Positions 1-6,219 of a stretch of DNA of 6,219 nt are shown piece by piece; position 1 is the stretch's first letter, and each line of letters begins with the position of its first letter. The notes beneath the pieces are model-generated. The model saw only the letters and a program-made list of their open reading frames with translations, ran no database searches and was not told the DNA's origin. The position numbers and the translations under genes are program-made. This DNA comes from a virus (lineage: Duplodnaviria > Heunggongvirae > Uroviricota > Caudoviricetes). The stretch lies in the IMG/VR virus record IMGVR_UViG_2740892369_000021. The stretch is one strand, 5' to 3'.

Positions 1-295
1 AAATAGCCCAGCTATTGCCGCCCTGCAATCCCGCATTACGCGTGGCAGACTCTGCATGTTCCATTACCTGCTCGGTATCCTGACCACTACGCCAGGCGCA
101 GATACCAATGTGGATCATATCGTCGCGATCGAGCATTTTATTGTTCGGCAAGGTATCGACGGCTTTGATTAACTGACCGGCGATGCTCTCTGCCTCTTTT
201 AACGTCCGGTGCGCGGGAATTTTTTCTCTGCGTGAGAGGGGGGGCGGTGTCCGGAGCGATCGTTTTTTTCGCCGGATGATCCCCCCCGGGGCGGG
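1..295 (-). CDS. Partial ORF running off the window start; distal part of a degenerate GGDEF-like domain; start not identifiable; may be host gene fragment
   Basis: Minus-strand frame is open from 295 to 1 with no stop. Translation ...IPAHRTLKEAESIAGQLIKAVDTLPNNKMLDRDDMIHIGICAWRSGQDTEQVMEHAESATRNAGLQGGNSWAI resembles the last third of a GGDEF domain (IGI.. block, then AE.A....GGN where canonical domains have AD.ALY.AK..GRN). No ATG with a Shine-Dalgarno in the window; the bounding in-frame stop at 296-298 is the HNH stop. Plus-strand frame 2 is also open over 2..170, so the strand call is tentative. Confidence 0.3.
238..287. repeat. Homopolymer-rich imperfect inverted repeat: G7 (238-244), T7 (263-269), C7 (281-287), with inner arms TCCGG (250-254) / CCGGA (272-276)
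   Basis: Read directly from sequence. G7 and C7 can pair around the central T7. Lies immediately 3' of the HNH stop. Confidence 0.8.
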
Positions 296-661
296 TCACA
301 GTCCGATGATATCGTCTGCCCTGCCATGACCTCCGGACACCTCCGGCAGCGTCGGGTCCGGCATACCACCCGCCGCTTCACGAGCAGACTTTTGTCGATG
401 GCATTCGGTGCAGAGCGTCCAGAGATTCGTCTCCTCATTACCACCACCGAACTGAAGTGCAATGCGGTGATCGAGTTCACTGTCACAGAGGTCAACCACA
501 CGACCACAGAGACAGCACTGCCCGGCATCCCTCAGCCAGATATGACGCTTGAGGGAAACCCGGGCACTGCCACTGACACGACGCTGTTCCCCCTTCAGAA
601 TATTCACCCGTCGGGTATTCAGTGTTTTGATTCTGCTCTGGAGTGTACGAAGCTCAGCCAT
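296..661 (-). CDS. HNH endonuclease (phage packaging-associated type)
   Basis: 121-aa ORF with HNH signature CCLCGRVVDLCDSELDHRIALQFGGGNEETNLWTLCTECHRQK (Cys pair, DH, N, CxxCH). SD-like GGGGA 8 nt upstream of ATG at 661. Confidence 0.85.
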   Translation of the reverse strand: MAELRTLQSRIKTLNTRRVNILKGEQRRVSGSARVSLKRHIWLRDAGQCCLCGRVVDLCDSELDHRIALQFGGGNEETNLWTLCTECHRQKSAREAAGGMPDPTLPEVSGGHGRADDIIGL

Positions 662-702
662 GTAAAATCCCCGTCATATAACTTGTCACCAGAGGAAAGA
701 AA

Positions 703-903
703 ATGTCATCGAAAAACCGGACCCGCAGAACCACAACCCGCAATATCCGTTTCCCCAATCACATAATTGAACAAATCAACATAGCCCTTGAGCATAAAGG
801 GTCCGGTAACTTTTCAGCGTGGGTTATTGAAGCCTGCAGGAGAAGGCTGGCAACAGATGCAACGCATCTGCGCCCGGCCAGCATGACAAATAACGAGAAA
901 TGA
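703..903 (+). CDS. Small basic ribbon-helix-helix-like DNA-binding protein (66 aa); possibly the small prophage protein family found beside terminase genes
   Basis: Strong RBS GAGGAA 6-7 nt before ATG 703. Basic N-tail (SKNRTRRTTTR), predicted beta strand RNIRFP, helix, GSGN turn, helix FSAWVIEACRRRL matching the RHH helix-B pattern (S..I..A). Only convincing plus-strand gene in the window. The family assignment is from memory only. Confidence 0.55.
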   Translation: MSSKNRTRRTTTRNIRFPNHIIEQINIALEHKGSGNFSAWVIEACRRRLATDATHLRPASMTNNEK

Positions 904-1034
904 ACGTTCGGTTACAGGAGCAGGTACCCACTGTCCTCCAACAATATTTCATCTTCATATCCGACGGAACAAGACTTACCCTGCCGGGATGTACAGAATA
1001 ACAACAGAGTGATAATTAATTTCTGATGAAATAA

Positions 1035-1361
1035 TCAGGGTGCAGAAGGACTAAAGATAAACGTTTTCTTCACGCCTTTACACGGCCTGTCCTTCTCAAA
1101 TCGCCATTTTGCCATCGCCTTTACAACCTGCTCATCAAACAAATGGTGCGGCTCTGAACGGATAAACTCAATTCGGGTGACAGTACCATCAGCACCAATA
1201 TCAAACTTCACATCAACCCGTCCCTTTATATAATTTGCCGCTGCATAGGCCGGATATTGTGGTAATGCCTTAACCAACTGTCGGGGCATATCTGTTTTAT
1301 GTTGCGTACAGCCCATAACCAGAGAAGACAACAAAATAATTAACGGAAGATTTCTTTTCAT
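1035..1361 (-). CDS. Lipoprotein consisting of a TonB C-terminal domain (TonB_C-like), likely phage moron
   Basis: Signal peptide with lipobox MKRNLPLIILLSSLVMGC, then PQYPAYAAANYIKGRVDVKFDIGADGTVTRIEFIRSEPHHLFDEQVVKAMAKWRF, which aligns with E. coli TonB C-terminus [55 protein letters not shown]. Start chosen at ATG 1361 (SD-like GGGAA upstream); the ORF track begins at GTG 1376 and an alternative ATG is at 1367. Confidence 0.7.
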   Translation of the reverse strand: MKRNLPLIILLSSLVMGCTQHKTDMPRQLVKALPQYPAYAAANYIKGRVDVKFDIGADGTVTRIEFIRSEPHHLFDEQVVKAMAKWRFEKDRPCKGVKKTFIFSPSAP

Positions 1362-1381
1362 TTTCATTCCCGGCACAGATA

Positions 1382-1398
1382 AGAATAAGTCTTATTCT
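1382..1398. promoter_or_regulatory. 17-bp palindrome AGAATAAGTCTTATTCT (8-bp arms), operator-like, 20-37 bp upstream of the lipoprotein start; Fur-box-like
   Basis: Perfect inverted repeat read from sequence. Overlaps a candidate minus-strand -10 (TAGAAT, plus 1394-1399) with TTGATG -35 (plus 1419-1424, 19-bp spacer). Plus 1378-1396 GATAAGAATAAGTCTTATT matches the 19-bp Fur consensus GATAATGATAATCATTATC at 13/19. Confidence 0.4.
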
Positions 1399-1665
1399 AA
1401 CAATGCCACCCTGTCGGTCATCAATCCTCTGCTTAATGGCAACGACAATTATCCGACTTAAATCACAAATCAGACACATGACATCACAGAGCTTGCGAGG
1501 TAACACATCGTCCGGTTTCTTCCACCATCGCACCGGACCAGCGACCATGAGGGACAACGCCGCGCTCCGTTAACGCGGTAAACCCCGGTGTGTATCGTTT
1601 TTGATTATCCCGCACACTCTCGTAGAGGAGTCTCCCTGTCGGGCTGCGGTCTCTGTTAATGCGGG

Positions 1666-1698
1666 GATACGGCGACGATACGGCGACGATACGGCGCA
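1666..1698. repeat. Tandem 11-bp direct repeat, about 3 copies (GATACGGCGAC x2, GATACGGCGCA)
   Basis: Read directly. Starts 8 bp 3' of the Rha-family gene stop, inside a 330-bp non-coding gap. The 11-bp period equals one helical turn. Confidence 0.75.
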
Positions 1699-1706
1699 TG
1701 GCTATG

Positions 1707-2258
1707 TCAGGCTGAAATGCCTTTATCAAATCCGGGTAACGCAATCTGCCCCTGCTGCTCCAGCCTGTCCAGCCTTGCCAGCAACTGAGGCTTCTTCACC
1801 CTGCCCCAGCGATTGAGCAAACGACCTGACATACTGGCGACATCTTTCTCTTTCATGTACTCCAGCATTACAGCGTTGCGCTCCGCCTCCAGATTCGCCA
1901 GACCTTGCTGAATAAGCTCAGCCATCCAGTTGAAAGCCTGAATGTACGCTTCCTTAAAGGTCATAGCAGCTTTCCCCGTAAAACCAAATACCAACATCGT
2001 CCAACCGTCTTTTGTCATTCGATATATGGGCTGGGGTTTACCGTTCTGTAACTCATTGTTTTCATAGCAAAGCGCAAAATTGCGCTCTGCAAATTCTTTT
2101 GAGCATTGTTGAACAACGGCTCTTGTTTTCCGCAATACATCTTTGTGTTCTTTGCCAAATGCTACGGCAACCTTTCGGGTATCCGTCACCGGCTCGTTGC
2201 CTGTCACAAAAACAAGATCGCGGAAATCAATACCGTTAACAATCGTCGGATAGTTCAT
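1707..2258 (-). CDS. Rha-family phage regulatory protein
   Basis: N-terminal block VTDTRKVAVAFGKEHKDVLRK and KPQPIYRMTKDGWTMLVFGFTGKAAMTFKEAYIQAFNWM fit the Phage_pRha signature (T.SR.VA..FGK.H.nVLR ... mt.dGf..Lvmgf.g..a..fkeayi..Fn.m). SD-like AAAGG 9 nt before ATG 2258. Confidence 0.75.
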   Translation of the reverse strand: MNYPTIVNGIDFRDLVFVTGNEPVTDTRKVAVAFGKEHKDVLRKTRAVVQQCSKEFAERNFALCYENNELQNGKPQPIYRMTKDGWTMLVFGFTGKAAMTFKEAYIQAFNWMAELIQQGLANLEAERNAVMLEYMKEKDVASMSGRLLNRWGRVKKPQLLARLDRLEQQGQIALPGFDKGISA

Positions 2259-2267
2259 AGCGTCTTA

Positions 2268-2359
2268 CCTTTCAGAAAATTGAGCCTGTCTCACAGAAAA
2301 GCCGCCCCGAGATGGTCGCCACCATATACGACAGTTCTCAGGCTCAACTTTCTGAAAGG
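2268..2359. promoter_or_regulatory. Long inverted repeat: 21-bp arms (2268-2288 and 2339-2359, 20/21 complementary) around a 50-bp spacer; 3' arm of the minus-strand RNA contains the Rha gene Shine-Dalgarno
   Basis: Arm 1 CCTTTCAGAAAATTGAGCCTG; reverse complement of arm 2 is CCTTTCAGAAAGTTGAGCCTG. On the minus transcript the stem ends 9 nt before the Rha ATG and includes GAAAGG. Confidence 0.6.
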
Positions 2360-2369
2360 CTCGGGGATG

Positions 2370-2391
2370 TGATATGCGCGTGAGATGCGCG
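2370..2391. repeat. Tandem 11-bp direct repeat x2 (TGATATGCGCG / TGAGATGCGCG)
   Basis: Read directly; sits between the Rz terminator and the Rha-gene inverted repeat. Confidence 0.6.
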
Positions 2392-2407
2392 ATGAAATTC
2401 AGATATG

Positions 2408-2430
2408 AAAAAGCCAGCGATTAAGCTGGC
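2408..2430 (-). terminator. Intrinsic terminator 4 nt after Rz stop
   Basis: Minus strand: GCCAGC-ttaatc-GCTGGC (perfect 6-bp stem) followed by TTTTTCAT. Confidence 0.55.
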
Positions 2431-2434
2431 TCTG

Positions 2435-2893
2435 TTAATTCAGGCACTGAGTGCGGATATATTCCTGCGCCCCTTCCAGTTGCTTCTGCATTGTCATCAA
2501 CCGCTCTCTGAGGGTGAAATAATCCCGTTCAGCGGTGTCTGCCAGTCGGGGGCCGGTTGCATTATCCATTCCGGAGGTGCCGGTGGCTTCACGCACGGTA
2601 CCGGAGCAGGTGGCGTTGATCCGCAGGCGCTTACGACCAGCGGCAACATCAGCACGCAGAGTTTCATTTTCAGCTCTCGCATCGGCTAATTCCCTTGAGT
2701 ATCTGGCATCAAGCGCAGCAACATCACGCTGGCGCTGCTGCATGTCAGTAATGGTTGCGTTTGCCAGCTCCAGCTCTCTGGCTTTTTTATCGCGCTGCGC
2801 TTTGTAGGTGATGGCGTTATCACGGTAATGGTCTGTTGCCAGCCACAGCGCACTACAGACCACCAGCAGAATAACGGTAAACGCGGAAAGCAT
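2435..2893 (-). CDS. Rz: Rz i-spanin (inner-membrane spanin subunit), 152 aa
   Basis: MLSAFTVILLVVCSALWLATDHYRDNAITYKAQRDKKARELELANATITDMQQRQRDVAALDARYSRELADA...DTAERDYFTLRERLMTMQKQLEGAQEYIRTQCLN closely parallels lambda Rz (AVNHYRDNAITYKAQRD..., PRLADTAERDYFTLRERLITMQKQLEG). Start placed at ATG 2893, not the ORF-track start at 3001. Confidence 0.9.
   Translation of the reverse strand: MLSAFTVILLVVCSALWLATDHYRDNAITYKAQRDKKARELELANATITDMQQRQRDVAALDARYSRELADARAENETLRADVAAGRKRLRINATCSGTVREATGTSGMDNATGPRLADTAERDYFTLRERLMTMQKQLEGAQEYIRTQCLN
2497..2682 (-). CDS. Rz1: Rz1 o-spanin (outer-membrane lipoprotein), embedded in Rz in another frame
   Basis: MRELKMKLCVLMLPLVVSACGSTPPAPVPCVKPPAPPEWIMQPAPDWQTPLNGIISPSESG parallels lambda Rz1 (lipobox, Pro-rich, ...CVKPPPPPAWIMQPPPDWQTPLNGIISPSERG). 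Confidence 0.85.
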   Translation of the reverse strand: MRELKMKLCVLMLPLVVSACGSTPPAPVPCVKPPAPPEWIMQPAPDWQTPLNGIISPSESG

Positions 2894-2904
2894 TCGGTTT
2901 ATGC

Positions 2905-3036
2905 TCACCCCACCAGCCCTGCCGAAGTCAACGCCATCCAGGTTATGGAAAGAAAAAGAGCAACCAGCATTAGTGAAAATGAAATACCGACGATTACACA
3001 AAGGCCCTTCGCCAGCATTATGAGTTTGTCTGACAT
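2905..3036 (-). CDS. Small hydrophobic ORF, 43 aa (MSDKLIMLAKGLCVIVGISFSLMLVALFLSITWMALTSAGLVG), predicted membrane peptide
   Basis: Below the ORF-track size cutoff; found by hand translation. Strong SD AAGAGG 5 nt before ATG 3036. Start lies 2 nt after the stop of the preceding mini-ORF; stop lies 11 nt before the Rz ATG. Confidence 0.35.
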   Translation of the reverse strand: MSDKLIMLAKGLCVIVGISFSLMLVALFLSITWMALTSAGLVG

Positions 3037-3038
3037 CT

Positions 3039-3128
3039 TTACCTCTTAATAGCAGTAATTAACCGGGCAACCACCCATAAAAACGGAATCAGCCAGACCA
3101 GCAAAAATTTCCAGTCCATTTTTATCAT
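3039..3128 (-). CDS. Small hydrophobic ORF, 26-29 aa (MIKMDWKFLLVWLIPFLWVVARLITAIKR), predicted single-TM peptide
   Basis: In-frame ATGs at 3128 and 3119 (M-I-K-M). ATG 3128 is 2 nt after the antirepressor TGA stop, so translational coupling is possible. No good SD of its own. Confidence 0.3.
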   Translation of the reverse strand: MIKMDWKFLLVWLIPFLWVVARLITAIKR

Positions 3129-3130
3129 CT

Positions 3131-3826
3131 TCATGCTGCGGTAGCTCTCCATGCAGCAAGCAGACCAGCAATCCACTGAACACCTTTTGGGGTGAATTTA
3201 ACCTGCGTAAAAGCATGACCATTGCCCGCCTCGCCCGTTTTCACGCTAAACCGCCCCGCATCCAGGTGATGCGAGTAAGGCGTCATTTTTCCAGCGAGGC
3301 GATACATTATTCCGTTCTCCAACAAAAACAGCCGGAAATCGGTTTCTTTGATACCGAGTAACTTAGCAACTTCCCGGAATCCCATCAGACCAGATGCTTC
3401 AACATAGTTATCAACAAATTCAGCCTTCGGCGCTGCTATTGCCAGTTGATTTTCCAGCACTGCTTTCTGTTCAGCCAGTTTTGCCGCAAATCGCAACGCC
3501 TCAGGTAAAGTCCGGGGGATCTGAATACCATGCATCGCTTTGAGTCTTGCCAGCACAGAACGACGAACGGCCTTTGACTCCCTCATGCCAACGAGCATCA
3601 TCTGGTCAAAATCCAGATCATAGTATGCCGTTCTTGTCTGGTTATTGTTTAACCGGAATTTTTTTCCGGTTCCATCAAGCTCTAGCTCATCCTCAATTTT
3701 TGCAAGAAACTTACGCGGTTCATGAGGGACTTCTCCGGCTTCTGCCCGGGCTGGATTAATAATGTTATTCAGAAAATCCAGACTACTCATGGATATTTCA
3801 TGATCGACAGAAATCATCTCTTTCAT
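3131..3826 (-). CDS. Phage antirepressor, KilA-C/ANT-domain protein, inserted between R and Rz
   Basis: C-terminal block FREVAKLLGIKETDFRLFLLENGIMYRLAGKMTPYSHHLDAGRFSVKTGEAGNGHAFTQVKFTPKGVQWIAGLL fits the ANT/KilA-C antirepressor pattern. SD AAGGA 7 nt before ATG 3826. Confidence 0.7.
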   Translation of the reverse strand: MKEMISVDHEISMSSLDFLNNIINPARAEAGEVPHEPRKFLAKIEDELELDGTGKKFRLNNNQTRTAYYDLDFDQMMLVGMRESKAVRRSVLARLKAMHGIQIPRTLPEALRFAAKLAEQKAVLENQLAIAAPKAEFVDNYVEASGLMGFREVAKLLGIKETDFRLFLLENGIMYRLAGKMTPYSHHLDAGRFSVKTGEAGNGHAFTQVKFTPKGVQWIAGLLAAWRATAA

Positions 3827-3960
3827 GGTTGATTCCTTTTAGTGATGAACCCTGCGCACAGGAATAACCAGCCCAAAGAGGGTTAACCAGACCACTGCCG
3901 GTTATCCACCAGGGCTCATCCTGAAAGGTTCTTTGGTTTATTTACGCTTGTGCGAAGCGC

Positions 3961-3989
3961 AGAAATGACAAAGGCACCATTACGGTGCC
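3961..3989 (-). terminator. Intrinsic terminator between R and the antirepressor gene
   Basis: Minus strand: GGCACC-gtaat-GGTGCC (perfect 6-bp stem, extendable) followed by TTTGTCATTTCT. Confidence 0.5.
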
Positions 3990-4099
3990 TCTGCGTGAAA
4001 TAATCTGCCTAACTTTATTCACTTACATTTTGCCAGTTCGCAGGATTTCGTGTTATCCGCCCGCGCTGGCCAACGTCATTTTTCAGCAAAATATTCTGC

Positions 4100-4633
4100 T
4101 TATCTGTCGATTCCCCAGCACGCCAGCGCGCTCTCCTGGTCACGACGGGATACCTGACCATAACAGTTATTTGAGCGAATACGGCAGTCTCTGCCACCGT
4201 CCTTAATCCACCAGCGAATCGCTTCGCAGGCACCTTTTCGATCTCCTGCATTAATTCGTTTATAAAACGTCGACGGGAAACACTTACCTGGGCCAATGTT
4301 GTAAGGACAGAATGACGCAATACCCGCTTTCTGGGGTTCAGTCAGTGGCACTTTGATGTTTTTCTCCACCCATGCCAGCGCCTTATCACGCTCAATGGCG
4401 TTAACCTGGTCGCATTTCCCCTTCGACAGCTTCATGCCAGGAATAACAGGCTTACCATCCACCCGGGTGGCTCCACGGCAGATGGTCCAGATACCCGCAC
4501 CATCACGGTATGCCGTGGTGTGGTTGCCTTCCTTTTCATCCAGAAACTGGTCGAGGATTTCAGGCGCAGAAGCACCTGCGGCAATCAGCGCCAGAACGGC
4601 AGCCGATAAACCATAGCGGAGTTTCCTGCTCAT
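4100..4633 (-). CDS. R: SAR endolysin (T4-type lysozyme, GH24) with N-terminal signal-anchor-release domain
   Basis: N-terminal weakly hydrophobic Ala/Gly-rich segment YGLSAAVLALIAAGASA; catalytic triad spacing E-x8-D-x5-T in EKEGNHTTAYRDGAGIWT; overall likeness to phage 21 R. Starts 4 nt after the S stop. Confidence 0.9.
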   Translation of the reverse strand: MSRKLRYGLSAAVLALIAAGASAPEILDQFLDEKEGNHTTAYRDGAGIWTICRGATRVDGKPVIPGMKLSKGKCDQVNAIERDKALAWVEKNIKVPLTEPQKAGIASFCPYNIGPGKCFPSTFYKRINAGDRKGACEAIRWWIKDGGRDCRIRSNNCYGQVSRRDQESALACWGIDR

Positions 4634-4637
4634 CAGC

Positions 4638-4853
4638 TTACTCTCCCCGTGCCGCCTTACGCCTGTCCTCTCTGATTTTGAAATACAGGTTCGTCAGGTA
4701 CGTCAGCAGACCAAACAGCAGACTCCCCAGCACGCCTATTGCCGCCCACTGAGACGGGGAAACCCTGTCCAGCAACTGCAGGAACCAGTAGCCCGTTCCC
4801 ACCGCTGACGTGGTGTATGACACACCTGTTGTGATTTTTTCCATCTGGTTCAT
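4638..4853 (-). CDS. S: Class II holin / pinholin, S21 type, with dual-start motif (Met1 and Met4)
   Basis: [71 protein letters not shown] is near-identical in its C-terminal two-thirds to phage 21 S (…[51 protein letters not shown]). SD GGAGG 7 nt upstream. Confidence 0.9.
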
Positions 4854-4888
4854 ACCCCGCCTCCCGCAATCCGGAAGCTCACAACATG

Positions 4889-4918
4889 AAAAAGGCCAGC
4901 AGCTGTTTACTGATGGCC
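4889..4918 (-). terminator. Intrinsic terminator upstream of S
   Basis: Minus strand: GGCCATCAG-taaacag-CTGCTGGCC (9-bp stem, one mismatch) followed by TTTTTCATG. Confidence 0.55.
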
Positions 4919-4929
4919 CTGACTCCCCG

Positions 4930-5202
4930 TTACAGCATCATGACCGATTCGGGTTGAGGTTCAGTCGCATCGGCGACCGGTGATTCAGGCTGAACTTCAC
5001 CGCTCTCTGCGGTGGTATCTCCCGCTTCAGTCGGTGGCTCTGCCTGTACACCAAGCAGCTCATCCAGAATGGCATCAACCTCTGCATCAAGACGCGCCTC
5101 AAGATTCTGGCGGAGTTTTTGTTTCAGTGCGCTCAGGACTTCTTCAGAGCGCAGGACTTCCTTCACTGCCTCTGCAGTGACCAGGGATGTAATTTCTGAC
5201 AT
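4930..5202 (-). CDS. Hypothetical acidic protein, 90 aa (amphipathic helical N-half, Pro/Glu-rich C-tail)
   Basis: ATG at 5202 preferred over the ORF-track GTG at 5376 because a separate 59-aa ORF in another frame occupies 5243..5422. Sequence [51 protein letters not shown]... Weak SD. Confidence 0.45.
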
Positions 5203-5242
5203 GGGATTTTCTCGTCGAAAGGTGTGATTAAGAAAGTTGCCG

Positions 5243-5422
5243 CTAAATGAGCGGCTCTTCGGGTTTGCTTCCGGCTGACTGACTGGCGCTGATTTTCTCA
5301 GCGGCCCTTTTGTCAATCTGTCTGCGCCAGAAGTCACGCATGGCCCGGTATCCACCCGAAAGGAGATACAGCACACAGACCACCGTACAGAAGTACAGCA
5401 TTAACTGGTTCAGAAATGTCAT
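5243..5422 (-). CDS. Small membrane protein, 59 aa (N-terminal TM helix, basic then acidic tail)
   Basis: Hand-translated: MTFLNQLMLYFCTVVCVLYLLSGGYRAMRDFWRRQIDKRAAEKISASQSAGSKPEEPLI. SD-like GGAAAG upstream of ATG 5422. One residue under the apparent ORF-track size cutoff. Confidence 0.45.
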   Translation of the reverse strand: MTFLNQLMLYFCTVVCVLYLLSGGYRAMRDFWRRQIDKRAAEKISASQSAGSKPEEPLI

Positions 5423-5440
5423 AATTTCTTTCCGTTATTG

Positions 5441-5469
5441 TTGACAATAAGAACTGTTTTCATTAAAAA
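5441..5469 (+). promoter_or_regulatory. Candidate sigma70 promoter on the plus strand (-35 TTGACA 5441-5446, 17-bp spacer, -10 TAAAAA 5464-5469)
   Basis: Perfect -35 hexamer at ideal spacing; the -10 is weak and lacks the terminal T. Points away from the 59-aa ORF toward the plus-strand terminator. Confidence 0.3.
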
Positions 5470-5475
5470 ACCAGA

Positions 5476-5556
5476 GTACGAAAGTATCGTTCCTTTATTT
5501 TTTCTCCATAGGTATCACCACCGCCAGCGTCCATTCCTGTCGCTGGCGGTTTTTTT
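5476..5556 (+). ncRNA. Candidate small RNA of about 80 nt defined by the promoter and terminator pair; antisense to the region upstream of the 59-aa ORF
   Basis: No plus-strand ORF with a start codon lies between promoter and terminator. The terminator is orphan, on the strand opposite to every surrounding gene. Confidence 0.3.
5520..5556 (+). terminator. Strong intrinsic terminator on the plus strand
   Basis: ACCGCCAGCG-tccattcctgt-CGCTGGCGGT (perfect 9-10 bp GC-rich stem) followed by TTTTTTT (5550-5556). On the minus strand the same hairpin has no U-run after it. Confidence 0.65.
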
Positions 5557-5557
5557 A

Positions 5558-6219
5558 TCATGCCGCAGTGTCTGTGCTGTTCACTTCCACCACAATGCTG
5601 TCTATCAGTACCGGGTAAGTCGCATTCCTGGTAATGTCTGTCACATGCAGTTTATCCGCCGCAAATGCACTGACCGGTGACTGCGTCAGCGTGAACGGTG
5701 TGCCATCCTGACCATCAATAACCGGCGTCACCTGAAGGCTGTTATTCCCGGCAAAGCGGAAAGACAGCGTATGCCATTCGTTATCAAATGCGCCAAAGGT
5801 TCCCAGTTTCAGGTTGTTTGTCGCCACTTTCGCATTGTGGTACATCACATTCAGGTCTTTTGCATCTGTCTGGATGTAGAACGCTGCCAGCAGGTTATTC
5901 CCCCCGTCTCCGGTCAGGGCAACGCCCTGTGGCAGTGAAGATACCGGCCAGTAAAACGCCATAACATACTGGTTCGCAGCCAGCGCTCCCGAAACCTTAA
6001 AGCGGCAGCGAATCTGCCCCCCTTTCTGTAACAGAGCCGCACCGTTGCCCGCGGCGTACTCCAGCACCCAGCTGCTTTTACCGGCTTCCTTGGTCAGCTT
6101 CACTGCCTTACCTCCGGTTCCCTCCGCATCGCTGACCACTTCTGCCCTGCCGCCACTGGCTGACCATCCCTGTACTTTCAGGCTTCCCTCTGACTCGCTG
6201 GCAAGGTAAGAGAGCAGTG
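5558..6219 (-). CDS. C-terminal ~220 aa of a larger protein running off the window end; possible beta-sandwich/lectin-like domain of a cargo protein
   Basis: Minus frame is open from 6219 to the TGA at 5558-5560 (the ORF-track start at 6139 is an internal GTG). Sequence ...WHTLSFRFAGNNSLQVTPVIDGQDGTPFTLTQSPVSAF... Its position upstream of S is where Stx-type phages carry a large nanS-p-like esterase; that identity is a guess from position and composition. Confidence 0.6.
   Translation of the reverse strand, partial: LLSYLASESEGSLKVQGWSASGGRAEVVSDAEGTGGKAVKLTKEAGKSSWVLEYAAGNGAALLQKGGQIRCRFKVSGALAANQYVMAFYWPVSSLPQGVALTGDGGNNLLAAFYIQTDAKDLNVMYHNAKVATNNLKLGTFGAFDNEWHTLSFRFAGNNSLQVTPVIDGQDGTPFTLTQSPVSAFAADKLHVTDITRNATYPVLIDSIVVEVNSTDTAA

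Follow-up and report, generated by a model that had tools for sequence, protein, structure and literature searches.

Homopolymer tracts beside the HNH gene of a lambdoid Stx1a prophage and the probable core of an HK97-type cos site

Three runs of seven identical nucleotides lie close together just past an HNH endonuclease gene in a 6,219-nt stretch of DNA from a viral sequence record (the window; all coordinates refer to this whole stretch), which raises the question of what this cluster is. The initial annotation described G7 at 238-244, T7 at 263-269, and C7 at 281-287, with inner TCCGG/CCGGA arms, and we found the three tracts at exactly these places and the arms TCCGG at 250-254 and CCGGA at 272-276. 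The cluster also includes a T6 tract at 220-225, just beyond the three described. Altogether, the window contains five runs of at least 7 nt against 1.3 expected, and three of them fall inside 50 bp. Mononucleotide shuffles never produced three runs within 60 bp (0/2000) and produced two in 1.65% of cases, so that the clustering is not a product of chance. As argued below, positions 214-287 are very probably the cos core of an HK97-type lambdoid Stx1a-converting prophage whose late operon is on the minus strand. The features of the locus are listed in Table 1.

Table 1. Features at and around the homopolymer cluster, in window coordinates
Feature	Position	Strand	Sequence	Remarks
Internal csrD fragment	1-213	-		About codons 314-384 of 646; RNase E specificity factor gene, not phage DNA; 100% identity
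csrD/phage join	213/214			csrD identity runs to 213, phage identity begins at 214; blunt, without microhomology
Phage left end, first 23 bp (+1 to +23)	214-236		Sense strand CTCACGCAGAGAAAAAATTCCCG	Includes A6 tract (window T6, 220-225)
Cohesive end	237-246		Plus strand AGGGGGGGCG; phage sense strand 5'-CGCCCCCCCT-3'	10-nt 3' overhang
Spacer between G-run and cohesive end	247-280			34 bp; holds T7 263-269 (sense A7), a CGATCG palindrome, and the TCCGG/CCGGA arms
C7, the sense-strand G-run	281-287			Upstream G-run element of cos; followed by sense ATCATC (window 275-280)
HNH endonuclease gene	296-661	-		121 aa; last late gene before cos; Pfam HNH PF01844, E 7e-7

From position 214 onward, the window covers the minus-strand late region of a lambdoid Stx1a prophage. 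Stx1a prophages of O26, O103, and O111-type strains, as well as four Stx1a phage records, match positions 214-6219 with 100% identity. The genes are, in order, those for holin and lysozyme, an antirepressor, Rz/Rz1, a Rha-family protein, a TonB_C-domain protein, a DUF3950 protein on the opposite strand, and the HNH protein, which related phages and prophages likewise carry under the annotation HNH endonuclease. The TonB_C-domain gene (1035-1376, minus strand) encodes a small lipoprotein-like product, is located between the lysis genes and the HNH gene, and looks like a moron. The DUF3950 (YlcI/YnfO) gene (703-903, plus strand) is arranged head-to-head with the HNH gene. Further away, an ORF at 5558-6139 on the minus strand lies under a feature that is annotated as a SASA-family carbohydrate esterase in the matching genomes, in a region cut by the window end.

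In intact relatives, the HNH gene is followed by a spacer of 287-294 bp, terS (PF03592), terL (PF03354 and PF20441), and a gene for a protease-capsid fusion. The same placement of terS and terL was seen in all 10 of 10 genomic contexts of the identical HNH protein and also in BP-4795 and RM8385; in the window, the terS side is replaced by csrD. Of all solved structures, the large terminase of an intact relative matched by sequence only that of HK97 (6Z6D, E 9e-10), which together with its PF03354 and PF20441 domains identifies it as a homolog of HK97 gp2. TerS, a Terminase_2 protein, gave no match to solved structures by sequence, and a BLASTP comparison of the HNH protein with HK97 gp74 was not significant (E 0.08), the two having the Pfam superfamily alone in common. 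Orthology of the HNH and TerS proteins to gp74 and gp1 was thus not found, and since TerS belongs to another family and the HNH/gp74 match lacks significance, the system is not a straightforward orthologue of that of HK97.

The nature of the site can be read from a published phage, and its identity as a cos site is in this sense already known. Positions 237-6219 are 100% identical to the induced phage Lys8385Vzw (MT225100), whose GenBank record ends at window position 237 and starts at window position 236. PhageTerm analysis identified Lys8385Vzw as a cos phage with 3' cohesive ends and with the cos sequence CGCCCCCCCT at the genome end (Zhang et al., 2021, PMC7946995). This 10-nt sequence is the reverse complement of window 237-246, which means that G7 forms the core of the cohesive end. 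The leading proposal of the initial annotation, a cos site adjoining the HNH gene of an HK97-like phage, is thereby borne out, as the published cohesive end of a 100%-identical phage coincides with the G7 tract. The left end of Lys8385Vzw continues into GTTAAC repeats and terS, whereas the window has csrD after 23 bp.

These physical ends come from the literature and were mapped in another isolate, by PhageTerm only, within a homopolymer-rich stretch. From them, we infer a nick in the minus strand between 237 and 236 and one in the plus strand between 246 and 247. The register that is common to the compared phages (G-run, 32 bp, and GAC directly followed by the cut) puts the plus-strand nick 2 bp further. 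In these phages, GAC usually directly precedes the overhang, whereas GGAC is found here 2 nt before the reported nick, so that the nick position is uncertain by about 2 nt. Relative to the reported ends, the C7 tract, i.e., the sense-strand G-run, lies upstream, at 34 bp from the nearer nick and 44 nt from the mapped right 3' end.

Two independent draft-genome contigs in IMG/VR (L025 and L029) end 5 and 4 nt, respectively, past the mapped sense-strand nick, with the terminal sequences ...CCCCCCCTCTCAC and ...CGCCCCCTCTCA, and a third IMG/VR contig (L077) breaks inside the G-run. All three ends may be assembly breaks at repeat boundaries or homopolymers, and their coincidence with cos is curious.

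Among characterized systems, HK97 is one of the closest. HK97 has 10-nt 3' overhangs, cleavage of its cos by TerL is stimulated by the HNH protein gp74, and a gene order of HNH-terS-terL is recognized as a hallmark of HNH-assisted 3'-overhang systems. The prophage resembles HK97 in the order of the HNH gene (gp74), cos, terS (gp1), and terL (gp2), in a 10-nt 3' overhang starting with CGCC, in its homologous TerL, and in an A/T tract just inside the left end. Both have a G-run followed by ATCA, which ends 42 nt before the right 3' end in HK97 and 44 nt before it here; in HK97, this is a G9 run followed by ATCAAATC and, further on, an AAAAC patch. The two differ in that TerS of the prophage is a Terminase_2 protein of another family than gp1, and the HK97 TerS site at +15 to +29 is therefore not transferable to this locus. 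In addition, HK97 is without the five GTTAAC-containing repeats that the intact relatives of this phage carry between +33 and terS, around an AT-rich stretch. These repeats are likely candidates for cosB-like binding sites of the Terminase_2-type TerS. A palindrome, GTTAACATGTTAAC, is present among them at +33 to +46 in the intact RM8385 prophage (locus L004, 3365-3500).

Similar features recur in Shigella SfI/SfV/SfII, Klebsiella phiKO2, and Burkholderia phi644-2/phiE125, which have 10-nt C-rich 3' overhangs (TGCCCGCCCC, TGCCGCTTCA, and CGCCCGCTTC; the SfI/SfV cos sequence was taken from PMC3636060, and the ends of phi644-2 are confirmed in PMC2920897). They share with the prophage the GAC before the overhang, a G-rich run 40-43 nt upstream, and an adjacent HNH gene, but differ from it in the overhang sequences, and their TerL proteins are only about 21-23% identical.

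The initial annotation had also noted a loose resemblance of the G7 segment to the lambda cohesive end GGGCGGCGACCT, which turned out to be coincidental: the overhang here is 10 nt long and 3', and the TerL is of the HK97 type. A lambda-type cos was rejected as a candidate, because it combines a 12-nt 5' overhang (GGGCGGCGACCT) with a gpA-type terminase that has no HNH partner, and because only GGGCGG (242-247) is common to both sequences. What the site does have in common with lambda is the overall logic, in which the nicking site has one element upstream of it and terminase-binding repeats downstream (cosQ-cosN-cosB), with the G-run at roughly the cosQ position. The position of cosQ in lambda is known from the work of the Feiss laboratory. 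PMC10359639 cites cosQ without a description of it.

We compared the position of the G-run across 13 sites, i.e., this one and those of HK97, phiKO2, SfII, Edwardsiella EPP-1, Burkholderia phi644-2 and CB2a, Xanthomonas phiL7 and OP1, Agrobacterium Rivra, Gordonia Kita, Arthrobacter Constance, and Paenibacillus Vegas. Records were included if they are linearized at cos or if the cos could be aligned; Methylophilaceae phage P19250A, which is not linearized at cos, was excluded. A run of at least five G or C ending 36-46 nt before the right 3' end was detected in 12 of the 13 HK97-type cos phages, the exception being SfII, which has GGGGAGGGGCGGG at the G-run position. Such runs occur in a background of 3.9% of 37-nt windows, corresponding to a binomial P of about 1e-16, or of 4e-8 if the background is set to 0.2. 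The hosts of the run-bearing phages belong to Proteobacteria, Actinobacteria, and Firmicutes. The window shows the same architecture of G/C run, about 32-34 bp, and overhang, its run ending 44 nt before the 3' end. Directly after the run, HK97, phiKO2, SfII, and EPP-1 have ATCA(A)ATC and the window has ATCATC. Most of the compared phages carry an A-rich patch (GAAAA) after the G-run, which in the window takes the form of the A7 run, and the first bases of the left end, CTCACGCAGAGAAAAAATTCC, resemble the left ends of phiL7, CB2a, and Rivra. Judged from these sequence comparisons, all three tracts map onto a shared HK97-type cos architecture.

The G/C run and the A-rich patch, located 32-34 bp upstream of the nearer nick, may represent a conserved cos subsite that has not been described so far. 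We found no description of the G-run in HK97-type cos sites in the searchable literature, a body that leaves key subscription papers outside its reach. The HK97 cos fragments used for packaging in vitro (-80 to +150 and -312 to +472) already contain the G-run. A comparable arrangement is known from the herpesvirus pac1 element, in which an A/T-rich core is flanked by poly-C/G about 32 bp from the genome terminus (PMC10763189, PMC13595911). The G-run and A-run of the prophage are found 32-34 bp from the nearer nick, a likeness in spacing and composition. In pac1, however, both runs are on the same strand and closely flank the A/T core, and we treat the likeness as a resemblance, without assigning the site to the same class.

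A packaging mechanism can be proposed for the intact form of this site. The HK97-type TerL and the adjacent HNH endonuclease would introduce staggered nicks at cos during packaging, and the cut would leave the 10-nt 3' overhang 5'-CGCCCCCCCT-3' (window 246 down to 237). When a packaging round ends, the sense-strand G-run and A-run could position or pause the incoming translocating motor-nuclease, a role that we infer for them and that would match the one of cosQ in lambda; this module would also occupy the cosQ position. A further-reaching version holds that the G/C run and the A-rich patch form a required subsite that pauses or positions terminase in the manner of cosQ or herpesvirus pac1, that the length polymorphism of the run tunes packaging, and that the csrD join, if real, seeds or ends the packaging of host DNA. 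This version is tentative, and we consider it rather unlikely. Prophages differ in the length of their G-run (6-13 nt), and this speaks against a strictly required length.

Variation within the phage group was analyzed in 53 distinct versions of the spacer between HNH and terS, drawn from 95 related loci. The best conserved part of the spacer in these variants extends from GGACAC through the overhang to about +50. Positions +1 to +23 are nearly invariant, the only changes being C/T exchanges at +6 and +22. The overhang itself varies by substitution at two positions, giving CGCCCCCCCT, CGCGCCCCCT, CGCCCCCCGT, and CGCGCCCCGT, and is 10 nt long in all but 2 of the 53 variants; the two 9-nt versions may be sequencing errors in a homopolymer. 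The commonest form of the overhang interrupts the homopolymer, so that an unbroken G7 is dispensable. The C tract (sense G-run), in turn, has lengths of 6-13 nt across the 53 variants in prophages that are otherwise near-identical, and the T tract (sense A-run) ranges from A5 to A8, with the first A often replaced by T or G.

This variation bears directly on the inverted repeat to which the initial annotation had drawn attention. If the G7...C7 repeat acted as a structure, either as a cruciform in DNA or as a hairpin in the late transcript (a terminator, a stabilizer, or a regulator of terS), a hairpin could be drawn on either strand, and the inner-stem changes found among relatives (TCCGG to TTCGG, CCGGA to TTGGA, and CGC to CGT), all of them C-to-T on the sense strand, would keep G-U pairs in the sense RNA. 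However, folding is no better than that of shuffled sequences: positions 230-295 folded as DNA reach -13.3 kcal/mol (z = -0.19; 86 of 200 shuffles are equally stable), and positions 214-300 folded as minus-strand RNA reach -28.9 kcal/mol (z = -1.36). No terminator-like site was detected on either strand in 1-760, the stem is not followed by a T/U run, and Rfam returned no match at E up to 1 in 1-1000, by which an intrinsic terminator and a known RNA family were both rejected. In the 53 variants, the inner arms change by one-sided C-to-T transitions only, with no compensatory change in any of them, which shows that the palindrome is not conserved as a pairing unit. The outer arm likewise has any length between 6 and 13 nt, and most relatives have its partner interrupted (CGCGCCCCCT) with no compensating change. 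Paenibacillus phage Vegas has a C-rich upstream run as well as a C-rich overhang, which leaves no possibility of a hairpin there. On the strength of the weak folding z-scores, the missing terminator and Rfam matches, and the one-sided changes, we rejected DNA or RNA structure as the main function and consider it very unlikely. The palindrome of about 50 bp thus exists as an inverted repeat but not as a functional unit, given one arm of 6-13 nt and no covariation; it is real and unremarkable as a structure, and an inverted-repeat search did not list the G7/C7 pair among the pairs it reported, returning other short pairs instead. The palindromic appearance arises because the G-run sits upstream of a C-rich overhang on the same strand. 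A different account would see the tracts as contingency loci that change by slippage, or as targets of mobile DNA, without any role in packaging. The length range of the C tract in otherwise near-identical prophages fits this account, as do the changes of about 1 nt in the T tract, the contig break of L077 within the run, and an insertion of ISEc20 (IS110 family) in the C tract of PPompW prophages, at about window 282-285, with C-runs at both IS ends. The suggestion of slippage-prone tracts is accordingly supported for the C tract and, to a mild degree, for the T tract, but not for the G tract, which changes by substitution and keeps its length except for the two 9-nt versions. Moreover, all the tracts lie between genes, the C tract beginning 9 nt from the HNH stop codon, with no promoter-like site nearby, so that changes in their length switch neither a reading frame nor a known promoter. 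Nor would a neutral slippage tract be expected to recur at one fixed distance from the end in phages of three bacterial phyla, and this account has, in our judgment, little chance of being correct.

The remaining alternatives concern the other side of the site, where phage homology does end at 214 and the interior of csrD begins. They take the site as a prophage boundary of the att type, or the join at 213/214 as the real feature, i.e., a chromosomal rearrangement, or as a chimera of assembly or sequencing. The initial annotation had listed both a prophage end and an att-type site. For the former, the end of phage homology at 214 agrees with the proposal, but the phage DNA is joined to the interior of csrD and not to an att site. 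The latter can be dismissed, as every intact relative runs straight on into the GTTAAC repeats and terS, with terL and the capsid genes next, which makes this point an internal one; there is no integrase nearby, and assignment as attL or attR was rejected because what follows beyond 214 is an ORF interior and not attB; the opposite prophage end lies outside the window. Concerning the join itself, its distance of only 23 bp from the packaging cut, where double-strand breaks arise, speaks in its favor as a real feature. Against this, it is blunt and without microhomology, was not found in any collection searched, and is known from one side of one junction. As explanations of the site, we regard these alternatives as extremely improbable, and the reading as an HK97-type cos core is the one that we retain.

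The csrD join nevertheless deserves a description of its own, and it is either a real rearrangement or a chimeric assembly. The csrD fragment is on the same strand as the phage late genes, and a csrD match covering at least 80% of the 235-nt query was present in all 5426 of 5426 complete E. coli genomes. A match spanning the join was obtained by megablast in 0 of these 5426 genomes and in 0 phage records. An exact scan of IMG/VR, the GTDB species genomes, and the JGI metagenomes with the 37-nt junction sequence gave no hit, and a lookup of the two junction-spanning ORFs found none on record. On the K-12 map, the essential genes accBC are located just beyond csrD, in a region that is not known to hold a prophage, which makes a simple deletion unlikely. 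The join falls directly beyond the conserved left-end box, 23 bp into the phage left end, so that the copy in the window retains the G-run, the overhang, and +1 to +23, and has lost the GTTAAC repeats, terS, and terL. In the absence of terS and the repeats, this cos copy is an orphan and probably not a working site for the initiation of packaging. If the join is real, csrD is disrupted and the chromosome carries an orphan cos core next to csrD-mreB; such a core, being nearly complete, could seed or end the packaging of host DNA.

In itself, the site is an ordinary one, at which the DNA of a common family of Shiga-toxin phages is cut for packaging. What the present analysis adds is the conserved G-run architecture, the unexplained csrD join, and the ISEc20 insertion in the C tract of one prophage lineage. 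A G/C homopolymer at a fixed distance in phages of three phyla points to a conserved cos subsite, and if this is true, the polymorphism of 6-13 nt in STEC prophages might tune packaging efficiency. Being highly polymorphic among STEC prophages and also the insertion point of an IS110-family element, the G-run is a weak spot for assembly and a possible marker for prophage typing. The ISEc20 insertion was located at positions 3069-4527 of locus L006 (PPompW_699, LC567826.1), where C-runs abut both ends of the element. On the far side of ISEc20, the PPompW prophages have a tRNA/Q region and not the HNH gene; the lysis genes and HNH have been removed by deletion or by an IS-mediated rearrangement. 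Poly-C runs may be targets of ISEc20.

Lastly, the 3' end of the HNH gene contains a tandem repeat, ACCTCCGG ACCTCCGG, at 329-346. This repeat is 93% complementary to positions 243-256, a segment that spans the cohesive end, and the two were reported as inverted repeat I1; the complementarity is probably due to chance.
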